A stretch of DNA of 64,000 nt from an uncultured archaeon. GTDB lineage: Archaea > Asgardarchaeota > Lokiarchaeia > Sigyniarchaeales > SOKP01. The notes under the pieces were generated by a model. That model was not told the origin of the DNA, did not search any database, and worked only from the letters and a program-made list of their open reading frames with translations. Shown here one piece after another: positions 57,308-64,000 of this stretch; the first letter of the stretch is position 1, and every line of letters starts with the position of its first letter. Made by a program: the position numbers and the translations under genes. The stretch lies in contig CAZALK010000004.1 in assembly GCA_964486045.1 (NCBI GenBank), forward strand, positions 224,001 through 288,000, read 5' to 3'.

Positions 57308-57898
57308 CTAATCTAAAAAATAATTATTATTTAAGGAAATAACAAACTGATCTACATCTTCTTGTATATCACCGCAAATTTTAAGCAAATGGGAATTCGT
57401 TAAGGTGATTTTCTCTACTCTAAAACCGTACTCTCTAGCTAAGATTTCACACGCATTCAAATCATCAATTTTAGTGGTGTTATACTCTGCACATTTAGAA
57501 CCAAGAGAAATCTTGCGAAAACAATGGGCTCCTGCTTCTTTATCTTTCGCATCAAAAGTTCTATATCGACATAAACCATATTTTTTTTCTGGTCTCGCTA
57601 AAAAAATAACATCTTTCATCTCAGTCGTACAATAGACAATCTCCCCAATTTTCACTTTTTCCAAGAACTTTTTGGACCGTACTTGTATTTTATCTGCAAG
57701 ATAATCATGATATAAAAGCTTATCTTTAAGCCCAGGACAAATCTTTAGCGCTTCAATTTTAAAAGATTTACTAAGTTCTACAAAGGAATTAAAAAACCTA
57801 CAATAAATAATATTCTTGCGTAATATCTTAAACTGGCAACCCTTAAAAGCACTCAAGCAAATGTAAGAATCTTGGATATTCGAATAATTGCTTTCCAT
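57308..57898 (-). CDS. Hypothetical protein; candidate immunity partner of the upstream giant protein
   Basis: 196 aa, Cys-rich, starts 40 bp after the giant ORF stop on the same strand. Confidence 0.6.
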   Translation of the reverse strand: MESNYSNIQDSYICLSAFKGCQFKILRKNIIYCRFFNSFVELSKSFKIEALKICPGLKDKLLYHDYLADKIQVRSKKFLEKVKIGEIVYCTTEMKDVIFLARPEKKYGLCRYRTFDAKDKEAGAHCFRKISLGSKCAEYNTTKIDDLNACEILAREYGFRVEKITLTNSHLLKICGDIQEDVDQFVISLNNNYFLD

Positions 57899-57938
57899 AT
57901 ATAATAAATAAGAAAATAAAAATATATAATTTTAACTA

Positions 57939-60900: not shown

Positions 60901-63900
60901 CCGTCGTTACGTTGCAAGTATGGGTAAAGTTTGTTGTATTCCCCGTTAGTCTCCTTGTTAATTGCGTTTTCTAAACCCATGATAGCATTTGGACTCTGAG
61001 TAGAAGTGAATGAATGTGGCGATAGCCGAGGATCATCGATATCCGAATACCCTGAATAATCACGCGTCTGTATGGCGTAATCAAGCGAAATAGGAAAATT
61101 GGAACCCCAATTTGTCTTCTTCCACCCTTGTGGGGCGAGAATAAGGGCTCCCTTGAAGTCATGGTTGTCGTATTCTAAAAATACATCACTGTACACACCG
61201 GCAGAACTCCCTATGATCATATCAGGGATTGATCCCCCCCATACCCTATCAGCCTCATTTTTGCTCGAGAGGGTAATAGCACCGTCATAATCTTCATTAT
61301 AAAGCGTTTGAGAAGCTACTAGTTGGGTGTTATCATGAGCTTGTTTCATAGCATTGAGAGCGCTGAGAATTGCATACATGAGTATGAAACCCGCGGTGCC
61401 AGTATGTGTTACGATCCCAAACAGAGTTGAAATAAGTGCAGCCCCAACTTGCCATAAAATGTCTTGAACCATTCTACCTTGTATAGATTGAACAAACTGA
61501 CTTGAGGTTATGGCTGAGACCTCTCTCATTAGTGTACTAGTCTCTGTATTATACATTATTTTCCAAACATCATATAATGAATCAGAGAATACATCGTCTA
61601 AGAAATATCCATCGTAAGAATTATAATCCCGCAAAAATACCCTATTTTGAGGCCCAAGGTTTGAAAAATCCCATAATCCGCTAGATGTGGAACTTATAAG
61701 ATGTTTTTCACTAAAGATTTTCTTGTTTGGCTCAAAATGAGAATTGTAATCGTAATCAAAACCTATTGCAAGTACTTTCTCGTCTCTGTTAACGACGAAA
61801 ATAGTGTCGAAAACTCCGTCTTGAGCGCTGGAATAAAACCAATATTCACCGCCAACGTCTACTTTTCTAGGATTTGTTTTCGGATTGCTGTCAATAATTA
61901 CTTTTCCATCATCAGGAATAATTTGGATTACTTCTAAGGTAGAAGATACCTTATCTGACCTTGAGAGAGAATCTGGAATTGATACTGTCTTTTGAACGGT
62001 CAAGATGTTTTCAAAAACTAGTGAGTCGGTAATGGTGGTTTTACTATCAAACAGAGCAGGAACATTGTCGGTAGTATGAGTGAAGCCCAAAAGCTCTTCT
62101 AATGCAGGGGCTTGAAGTGTGAGGTCATTTGATGGATCTTCATCCCCGTTATCGTTAGTAATTACCTTTAAATAAGTATTAGGATCGTATTTTGCAGATA
62201 GCTCATTAGCGAAAGTATCTTCATAAATCCGAACTGAGCTTACTTCGCCATATTCATAATCTCTAAAGGTAAATAAGTGGGATTTAGCAGAAGTCTCAAC
62301 GAAAGAGTCACGCAACTCTGTAATGGTCCCCTCGGGGAACATTTTGGTGCTAAAAACATCATCTAAGAAAAATCCCATGATTTCTGTAGTATATGTAGTC
62401 GTCTCTGAAAATGTACTCGATGCTTCAAATGTGATGTCTTTATCAATAAGCCCATCTAAATCGAGGTCTTTTTGAATAATTACTGTTGTCTTTGTAGTGG
62501 TGCTAGTCGTGGTGGTATTTGTTATTAATGTTCTTCGACCAAAAAGGGTTCCGACCATATAAGGAATACCATTTTTATTTTCTACATAAAATTTATCTCC
62601 AAAAATTGTATTATCACCTGCAATCTCATAATACTTAGTACTTCTTACATCGCTGGTCTTTTGCGTCTCTACGTTAGTTGTCTTTGTCTTGATTAAGGTG
62701 GTATGGAACACAATCTCCCCTGCGGAGTTAACTTCTCCATATTTATAAACATCGTAAATGCCGTCGATGTCAACATCCTGACTTTGTATGACTAACTCGT
62801 GTTCTCCATCAAGGCTAAAATCATAAAGCTCTAGGGCAGTTCGTTTATCATCCTTTCTTGAGAAATTTGCGAAGTCAGTAAGCTGAATATCGTTATTAAA
62901 CTCATATTCTGAAGTTAAGGTATTATAAATAACAAAATTAACATTTCTCACATATTCAAGGTATTCAAAAAGCGAATCATCAGAGCCAACCGCATAATCT
63001 TCCATAAGTAGGAAGTAATCAATATCATTGTATTCGTAATCAACATAGATGCTGTCATTCTTGGTCCAAGCAGGTGGTCCTGATTTATCTTTCCCATTTT
63101 GAAGTAGCCTGAATTGAGTGTAATCAGAATAAGCACCTTCAGTAAAGTTAAGATATACAATAACCTTCTCAAAATTTCTCAAACTAATGCTATTTGGCGC
63201 TTGAATTTGAATCGATTCTCCGTCAGGGAAATTAGAATCTGCTGGATCAAAATCGACCTCAGATTCGTTGAAAAAGAGTCCTTTTATCATCATGATTTCT
63301 AGGTTTTGGGCATCGGAATAATCTTGTGATAAGTCAAATGTATCTGTATCTCCTTCCGAATTATAAGGGAAAATATTCTCAATTGCGATGTGTCGTGCTT
63401 CAAATTCGTTTAGGGATTGATCATATGCGACAGATTGATATTCTTCCAAAATCTCATCGTACCATTCAAAAGTGATATCCATTGTGCTGATATTTACGTT
63501 TGGGGTCTCAATGGTGTGCCATTCGTTCCATGCATTTTGGTCTGCCCATGAAAGGTAGAGGTATCTGAAAGTGTCAATATGAGGATTATAATATTCAAAT
63601 AAGTCTTGAAGATCCGAATCTTGGTCACGGTAGGCATAATAATATTCTTCGTTGTATTGAGGATTCCAAGTAATATCATAAACCCCTGAAGTCGTTTCTT
63701 GACCACTTAAGTGTTCATCAAAATAATACCAATTACCATCACTATCAAATGCATCGAAATAATAAGTCTCGTTTATTGCAGGATCGTCTTGATATAACGG
63801 GAGAAACTCGCTTGCGTCTAGGATTATAGATTCACTATAAATATTCGCATAATCCCCCACATAAAACTTTTCTAAATGGTTATTTTCAAAAATATCGAAA

Positions 63901-64000
63901 ATATCTGAATCGTATAGGGTTGTGTTTTCTTCAAATTCGAATAGAAAAACGGAATCGATTATTAATTCATAGCGTGGGTCGTTGGATGTAATAAGAATGT
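57939..64000 (-). CDS. Giant multidomain protein (5'-partial, >2000 aa) with C-terminal PD-(D/E)XK-like nuclease; polymorphic-toxin-like
   Basis: The frame stays open from 63860 to the window edge. Acidic D/E/Y/T-rich body with DxDxDG motifs, hydrophobic helices, then a basic C-terminus with '[22 protein letters not shown]...ND..K...C...G..LI.VPY'. Confidence 0.85.
   Translation of the reverse strand, partial: [2019 protein letters not shown]

Follow-up and report, generated by a model that had tools for sequence, protein, structure and literature searches.

Does the far end of a giant Lokiarchaeial gene encode a nuclease toxin, and does the small gene behind it encode the antidote? This question is raised by a window of 64,000 nucleotides, G000:C4:224001-288000, in which a first-pass annotation had proposed a contact-dependent or secreted nuclease toxin of an Asgard archaeon. 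Here G000 is the source genome, C numbers denote its contigs (C4 being contig CAZALK010000004.1 of assembly GCA_964486045.1), other G numbers denote the genomes of relatives, and window positions are used throughout. The Asgard origin is confirmed by the genes flanking the locus, whose order is shared with contigs of Lokiarchaeum GC14_75 (GCA_000986845.1) and of related assemblies from marine sediment; the source organism is therefore a Lokiarchaeon. Polymorphic toxin systems, including Tox-REase tips and orphan toxin-immunity modules, were placed in a common framework by Zhang et al. 2012 (PMC3482391), who found them to be rare in archaea (ca. 15 of 225 archaeal genomes in the authors' response), and the archaeal examples are without experimental characterisation (PMC8416519). 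Our answer is that the C4 locus represents a truncated member of a lineage-specific family of giant proteins with the architecture of a polymorphic nuclease toxin and its cognate partner; a variant of polymorphic toxin systems is the preferred interpretation, with a probability of roughly 0.6.

The giant frame lies on the minus strand, ends with a stop codon at 57939-57941 and is open to the window edge, with 46 sense codons beyond a GTG at 63860 as first described. On the contig it reaches C4:297646 and comprises 5,235 codons from stop to stop, making the initial estimate of more than 2000 residues correct and a large understatement. Searching the source organism's own genome with tblastn identified a family of paralogues. 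Two are longer, C7:1-28497 (at least 9,498 aa) and C8:1-28344 (at least 9,447 aa), and both run off their contig starts. Shorter copies of 2,010 aa and 669 aa are found on C23 and C13, the latter starting at a hydrophobic segment, segment D, that precedes the C-terminal region, and family remnants are present on C17 and C36. The C4, C7, C8, C23 and C13 proteins align up to the motif ...KTIIHNIVV, located around residue 4,675 of 5,235 in the C4 protein, and diverge after about residue 4,680. Just past this motif lies a sharp junction between a shared trunk and an individual tip (59607..59642, minus strand), where identity between paralogues drops from 0.5-0.9 to at most 0.2 within about 10 residues and the GC content changes from ca. 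0.40 to ca. 0.31. The last 555-660 aa or so are unrelated among the five paralogues. A conserved scaffold with a varying C-terminus, proposed initially as a check, is consequently what the family displays, with the variable part spanning about 556 aa (57942-59609) instead of the suggested 480 aa. The gene following the stop also differs between paralogues and encodes a leucine-rich repeat protein at C7, a 165-aa open reading frame at C8 and a DUF2695 protein at C13. A common C-terminus lacking a variable downstream gene, the pattern named at the outset as speaking against a toxin, is not observed among the five. The DUF2695 gene (L008:5105-5704, minus strand, on G000:C13) is the next gene after the 669-aa orphan and its Pfam match is above the cut-off (E 4e-7), while the orphan's own tip gives a sub-threshold ubiquitin-like match (E 1.5e-4). 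The C7 tip shows weak HNH matches (PHROG E 2e-4, PADLOC homing endonuclease E 0.002, Pfam HNH_3 E 0.096), which together with the Vsr-like tip of C4 described below suggests that different nuclease types are carried on one trunk. Sequence searches of the PDB with the C4, C7 and C8 tips returned nothing meaningful.

The C4 tip is Lys/Arg-rich as originally noted (K+R 13.6%) and its last 160 aa (57942..58421, minus strand) are confidently predicted to form a PD-(D/E)XK nuclease of the Vsr/homing-endonuclease type, with a fold shared by Vsr, I-Bth0305I, DUF559 and RAP-type domains. The motif LELDGY...IEYNGPQHY, from which a PD-(D/E)XK active site had been deduced, is located at 58194-58259 within this fold. 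In a 19-sequence alignment (A1) the residues E22, D58, G59, E69, G72, H75, D103 and K106 are invariant and all are kept in the C4 tip. An AlphaFold (AF2) model of the domain has a predicted local distance difference test score (pLDDT) of 86.3 and a predicted template modelling score (pTM) of 0.80, and its top Foldseek match is Vsr (1cw0_A, probability 0.99, TM 0.56-0.58). Structural alignment by VIA-align gave a Z score of 9.9 against Vsr (127 residues aligned, root-mean-square deviation 4.4), 8.2 against I-Bth0305I, 8.0-8.2 against RAP-domain proteins (8.0 for the FASTKD4 RAP domain) and 7.8 against the DUF559-like NGO0050. The combination of predicted fold and invariant residues supports the deduced active site and places it in the Vsr-like branch. 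Like other members of this branch, the C4 domain has conserved acidic and His residues in the expected strands. In contrast, it is only 14-18% identical to solved structures, belongs to no Pfam family at E 0.1, forms the C-terminus of a giant surface protein and is accompanied by a partner gene. No Pfam match to the C4 tip appeared even at E 1, and the gathering scores of Vsr (PF03852) and DUF559 were not reached.

The nuclease is preceded by a variable middle region of about 396 aa (58422..59609, minus strand), which is basic, contains no N-x-S/T sequons and together with the nuclease constitutes the swappable cassette. This region is unrelated to the C7, C8, C23 and C13 tips; the ca. 400 aa between junction and nuclease match only a free-standing 743-aa protein of G026 (27% over 400 aa) and the syntenic Lokiarchaeum orthologue discussed below. 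Relatives of the last ca. 130 aa are more widespread; they occur in 47 of the 135 family genomes, most of them within proteins 400-1,500 aa long that also contain CapR or treble-clef zinc ribbons. Two such proteins of 413 and 1,461 aa, combining these ribbons with a Vsr-like nuclease, are encoded on C1 of the source genome (L009:5688-6929 and L010:4558-8943, both minus strand, G000:C1). They look cytoplasmic, match PHROG homing endonucleases, have no adjoining partner gene and are of a kind common in the archaeal family.

These relatives bear on the possibility that mobile elements of the homing-endonuclease type have invaded the conserved junction of giant adhesin genes and became the 3' cassettes through accidental in-frame fusion, the partner being part of the element and no antidote. 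PHROG families of phage homing and intron-encoded endonucleases match the C4 nuclease with E values of 1e-11 to 1e-5, I-Bth0305I is among its nearest relatives of known structure, these genomes hold numerous free-standing copies that carry CapR or treble-clef zinc ribbons, and the insertion point is sharp and conserved. However, the cassettes are always in frame and, like the exported part they adjoin, free of sequons. The same position is taken by enzymes of unrelated types, the free-standing copies lack a partner, and partners outlast the nuclease, which is unexpected for a homing element. We regard such a selfish origin of the arrangement as very improbable.

The small gene noted downstream of the giant gene (57308..57898, minus strand) is real and conserved. 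It encodes a 196-aa protein (P0002) without signal peptide or hydrophobic segment, a candidate cognate inhibitor of the tip. A spacer of 40 nt (57899..57938, minus strand), corresponding to 33 nt at the orthologous locus L100, separates the giant-gene stop from the partner start, and the two genes are probably co-transcribed. The AF2 model of the partner (pLDDT 87.8, pTM 0.74) consists of an N-terminal 4-Cys beta-hairpin module, a long helix, an SH3/Tudor-like barrel and a ferredoxin-like alpha/beta module. Structure searches with this model returned generic small-fold matches with Z scores of at most 7.3 and no specific relative, and searches of Pfam, NCBIfam, PADLOC and PHROG returned no match.

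The partner is linked to the nuclease across related genomes. Its homologues occupy 33 loci, spread over 25 of the 135 family genomes, and we searched all 33 with a hidden Markov model of the nuclease. At nine loci a Vsr-like nuclease is encoded in the open reading frame directly upstream on the same strand, and it occurs nowhere else in those loci. Four of the nine are tips of giants carrying the conserved pre-tip block described below (the C4 gene, G047:C28, G124:C19 and G024:C153, from three genera), one is a small free-standing nuclease of 273 aa and four are short decayed remnants of the nuclease beside an intact partner. In G048 and G053 the partner lies beside secY, where G047 has both tip and partner. 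Decay of the nuclease next to an intact partner is what a toxin-antidote pair would leave behind and is hard to explain as mere regulation in cis, and the persistence of orphan partner genes provides the main argument for delivery between cells. The suggested layout with a small downstream gene is supported at the level of genomic linkage, the gene going specifically with this nuclease type; paralogues with other tips have other neighbours.

The trunk of the C4 protein is acidic as predicted, with 16.3% D+E and 5.5% K+R, and its first 4,060 residues contain no Cys. The window holds the distal end of this non-repetitive stalk (61461..64000, minus strand), which continues to C4:297646 without any Pfam domain. 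No match to a Pfam, NCBIfam or PADLOC family was obtained for the 2,019 aa encoded in the window or the 3,215 aa preceding them, nor for 4,140 aa of C7, the N-terminus on C36, the 1,148-aa syntenic orthologue or the 743-aa homologue of G026. A search of the ESM Atlas with stalk residues 1-840 gave no usable match. Self-BLASTP of the giant protein detected no internal repeats, so that a tandem Ig- or cadherin-type adhesin is rejected at the sequence level. Of the Ca2+-binding-type motifs listed in the first-pass annotation, two are true DxDxDG strings, DVDIDGIYD (62751-62777) and DLDLDGLID (62442-62468), against 0.14 expected. They are the only ones within the 5,235 aa, and the string [10 protein letters not shown] falls outside the motif. 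A second family of giant proteins, with members of at least 3,425 and at least 3,382 aa (L014 and L015; G000:C9:3-10280 and G000:C10:187929-198077), is ca. 23% identical to part of the C4 stalk; both members run off contig ends and are 94% identical to each other there.

Sequons are enriched in the stalk (67 observed, 43 expected) and vanish from about residue 3,800 on, the distal 879 aa containing one where 8.2 are expected. The C4 tip has none (3.4 expected), and the five paralogue tips pooled likewise have none (19.4 expected, P 4e-9). Between stalk and tip are three Gly/Ala-rich hydrophobic clusters, all present where the first-pass annotation had placed them: A (61347-61460), B-C (ca. 59904-60431) and D (59670-59789). 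Segment A (61347..61460, minus strand) marks the exact start of the 1,148-aa syntenic orthologue. Segments B, B' and C form a pre-tip block (59904..60431, minus strand) with conserved Q, Y, E, YT, ST, E..E..DP.IE and RE residues that serves as the family signature. Within the same family 29 of 134 genomes contain this block, against one of 14 in a sister family and one of the remaining 251 sampled genomes of the phylum. The open frames that carry it reach 20,619 aa, the match in this longest frame observed being at G063:C13:141921-142400. Segment D (59670..59789, minus strand) is a Gly/Ala-rich stretch of 40 aa with a central GGP, possibly a helical hairpin, and is conserved in closer relatives only. 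All segments are marginally hydrophobic, with Kyte-Doolittle means over 19 aa of 1.6-1.9 and summed Hessa values of +1.6 to +6. The latter overlap those of real SecY spans, and the scale did not separate spans from amphipathic helices. An alignment of 27 family members revealed helical amphipathic periodicity and conserved polar or acidic residues (Q, Y, E, DP, RE). The proposal that these are membrane-inserting translocation helices is consequently unsupported, and on the alignment A-D are just as likely to represent a conserved helical pre-tip domain.

If A-D were instead true spans, the protein would be anchored at both ends and the nuclease would reside in the producer's own cytoplasm as a self-destruct or defence device acting in cis, set off for instance by damage to the giant ectodomain or contact with it, with the partner as its inhibitor. 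The sequon distribution accords with this arrangement, since sequons end ca. 260 residues before segment A and none follow in the C4 protein, as do the basic tip and a Lys-rich stretch after segment D that would obey the positive-inside rule, the Hessa sums in the range of SecY spans, the occurrence of tip homologues as ordinary cytoplasmic proteins, and two weak Pfam hints, one for the C7 tip of an effector-associated domain (EAD1, E 0.028) and one for that of C13 of a ubiquitin-like domain. Against it stand the amphipathic character and conserved acidic and polar residues of the 27-member block and the lack of family-wide conservation of segment D. Tip and partner also match no PADLOC defence family, and intact partners beside decayed or lost nucleases are expected for protection from an incoming toxin but not for an inhibitor acting in cis. 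We consider a cytoplasmic tail of this kind unlikely.

The 5' end of the C4 gene indicates that this copy is incomplete. Similarity to C7 sets in only with codon 12 of the C4 frame (C7 residue 4,137) and the DNA further upstream is unrelated. The two sides of the breakpoint have only TTA in common, and it adjoins 1,121 nt that are 100% identical to C6:534-1654 (G000:C4:297611-298731, beyond the window). A metallo-beta-lactamase (MBL)-fold gene that is intact on C6 is cut on C4, its fragment abutting the breakpoint. The contig ends 2.1 kb past the breakpoint in repeats, one of which is also present, at 75-83% identity, on C1, C9, C14, C15 and C16. As a false assembly join requires a shared k-mer and none exists at the junction, the breakpoint is probably real, and from this comparison the C4 gene is probably a 5'-truncated paralogue of the C7 and C8 giants. 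A mini-intron of the bulge-helix-bulge type behind the apparent 5' end was rejected, as C7 homology stops at the breakpoint and the upstream DNA copies C6. Extension along the contig, suggested as a route to the N-terminus and its secretion signal, revealed neither for the C4 copy; its frame begins inside the stalk. An N-terminus of the family is found on C36 (L104; G000:C36:1-4713, minus strand), where a basic start and five strongly hydrophobic segments precede a sequon-bearing stalk, an arrangement that puts the stalk outside the cell. This fragment ends at the contig edge near the equivalent of C7 residue 4,086 and has no DNA overlap with the C4 gene, so that the link between the two is unproven. 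No PrsW or other Pfam match to the C36 N-terminus was detected at E 0.1. The C17 locus (L105; G000:C17:1153-2287) carries the same N-terminus fused to an internal fragment and is a clear remnant.

At the syntenic position a related Lokiarchaeum assembly carries a 1,148-aa gene starting exactly at segment A, whose tip is 68-69% identical to that of C4 (68% for its middle region), with 67% identity for the partner and 43-52% for the trunk part. The ratio of nonsynonymous to synonymous substitution rates (dN/dS) between the two loci is lowest in the nuclease (0.13), followed by the middle region of the tip (0.23) and the partner (0.26, P0002 against P0003). Trunk identity between C4 and C7 is mosaic, ranging from 58 to 96%, with a dN/dS of ca. 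0.1. These substitution ratios show purifying selection on trunk, tip and partner. The mosaic identity, combined with a trunk that is less conserved than the tip at the orthologous locus, suggests recombination among copies, and trunk copies may exchange sequence by gene conversion.

The same observations decide how seriously to take the C4 copy as a recently truncated pseudogene or assembly chimera, functionless whatever the family does. Microhomology of only TTA at the breakpoint, the adjacent C6 duplicate with the contig end 2.1 kb on in repeats, the lack of a start codon with a signal, and the obviously degraded family remnant on C17 would all suit a dead copy. However, 15.7 kb have stayed free of stops in a genome of 31-40% GC, the dN/dS against C7 is low, the orthologous locus is cut even shorter and its tip and partner are nevertheless under purifying selection, and a de Bruijn assembler would need a k-mer that the junction does not offer. 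Truncated copies also recur in the family (C23, C13 and the Lokiarchaeum orthologue), similar to the orphan modules of bacterial contact-dependent inhibition (CDI) and Rhs loci. A dead copy is in our judgement quite unlikely; the C4 copy may be a silent cassette.

Taken as a polymorphic toxin, a full-length member of the family would consist of an N-terminal multi-pass anchor, an acidic sequon-rich stalk, a sequon-free pre-tip domain and an exchangeable C-terminal cassette. The C4 cassette comprises the ca. 400-aa basic region and the Vsr-type nuclease, inherited with the cytoplasmic 196-aa partner, which most likely binds and blocks the tip nuclease. Full-length members would display the tip at a great distance from the cell surface and introduce it into neighbours, where DNA would be cut, and the partner would protect kin. 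Truncated copies such as that on C4 could act as a reservoir from which full-length paralogues acquire other tips by recombination, or be made as short forms. A nuclease at the far end of a long, membrane-anchored stalk, in an organism from sediment (the syntenic assemblies being of marine-sediment origin), could also serve to digest environmental DNA for nutrients, the partner guarding the cell's own DNA before export. Such scavenging leaves unexplained the swapping of tips, the orphan cassettes, the partners kept without a nuclease and the avoidance of glycosylation sites in the tip, and has very little probability in our view.

Several observations count against the toxin interpretation. 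The C4 protein carries no export signal, anchor or secretion-system domain, and this copy could consequently not be exported on its own in the way suggested for full-length members. In the 27-member alignment the hydrophobic segments resemble amphipathic helices more than membrane spans, and a basic, sequon-free tail after them fits a cytoplasmic location equally well. Free-standing cytoplasmic nucleases without a partner, such as those on C1 and the 743-aa protein of G026, indicate that the domain need not harm its own cell. The partner fold matched no known immunity protein in the structure search. An adjoining nuclease is missing from 24 of the 33 partner loci, some of which lie beside housekeeping genes; these loci fit orphan immunity genes and would also fit another role of the partner. 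Pairwise covariation between nuclease and partner across the six intact pairs (Spearman 0.03) is uninformative beyond the orthologous pair.

Comparison with known systems places the locus near the described classes of bacterial polymorphic toxins. The family resembles CdiA-CT/CdiI, Rhs and MafB systems in its long conserved trunk, its sharp junction and the unrelated C-terminal nuclease cassettes of paralogues, in a small cytoplasmic downstream gene that tracks the tip type, and in truncated orphans with trunk homology and antidote-like genes that outlive the toxin. In contrast to these systems, the C4/C7 family has no detectable TPS/FHA, Rhs/YD, MafB-N, PAAR, LXG/WXG, HINT or PrsW domains. 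The Lokiarchaeial trunk is non-repetitive, without Pfam domains and 9,000 to 20,000 aa long, its orphans are dispersed and very large, and the host lacks an outer membrane or a known dedicated secretion partner. No Pfam match to CdiA or two-partner features was found in the 5,235-aa open reading frame or in 4,140 aa of C7, and Rhs/YD character is absent as judged by Pfam RHS and by the lack of internal repeats in self-BLASTP. The junction motif is ...KTIIHNIV... instead of the VENN of CdiA. The first-pass annotation was accordingly right in calling the scaffold non-Rhs and non-FHA (no Rhs, FHA or TPS domain by Pfam), and its likening of the layout to CdiA, Rhs and MafB stands for the trunk, the swapped nuclease tip and the linked downstream gene but not for export, the C4 copy having no signal. 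PrsW-type toxins (Zhang et al. 2012) show the same order of a multi-pass N-terminal membrane domain, a long filament and a restriction-endonuclease-fold tip. The five-segment N-terminus of C36, however, has no PrsW Pfam match and is not on the C4 copy.

Among archaeal proteins, the Asgard giants of Wu et al. are similar by description in exceeding 3,000 aa, in being lineage-specific and, for some, in lying on accessory DNA, while that description gives no function, swappable nuclease tips or partner genes. VARTIG of Thermococcales (Makarova et al. 2021, PMC8416519) is likewise a large archaeal surface protein with a hypervariable C-terminus and variable downstream genes, and was likened to polymorphic toxin systems by its authors. 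There, however, the variable part is an Ig domain and not an enzyme, the proteins are far smaller and no nuclease-antidote pair is present. A full-text literature search turned up no publication that connects giant genes of Asgard archaea with swappable nuclease tips.

Genes flanking the cassette code for an archaeal histone, a GNAT acetyltransferase, an isocitrate/isopropylmalate dehydrogenase and two GTPases of the Roc/Ras type. All 20 other sampled genomes of the genus keep the GNAT-histone pair and in none of them is it followed by the giant-gene cassette, which is therefore accessory DNA at this site. Between the histone and partner genes lies a 53-aa piece of a PFL-like glycyl-radical enzyme (57062-57223, minus strand; Pfam PF02901, E 8.7e-7), and in G026 (L041) the partner homologue adjoins an intact PFL-like gene, suggesting that the cassette may have come with part of an old neighbourhood. 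The two GTPase genes, of the Roc/Ras/Arf type and about 520 aa each, are arranged in tandem at 50526-53823 (plus strand) and their synteny is shared with Lokiarchaeum contigs.

At even odds, in our estimate, Lokiarchaeia of this family possess a contact-dependent weapon of their own, consisting of non-repetitive surface proteins of 9,000-20,000 residues on a trunk unrelated to the bacterial ones, exchangeable nucleases derived from homing endonucleases that are pushed into neighbouring cells, cognate antidotes, and large truncated copies, the latter two acting as a tip library. If so, some of the largest prokaryotic genes would gain a function and a delivery trunk without known relative would be added to the repertoire of such systems. 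The C4 locus contributes very large truncated copies kept under selection, like the orphan modules of bacterial systems, and its nuclease-partner pair is small enough for bench work. The finding would give a handle on competition and recognition among Asgard archaea, which live in tight consortia, and would directly document, at the molecular level, that cells antagonise one another or discriminate kin in the archaeal lineage to which eukaryotes are most closely related.

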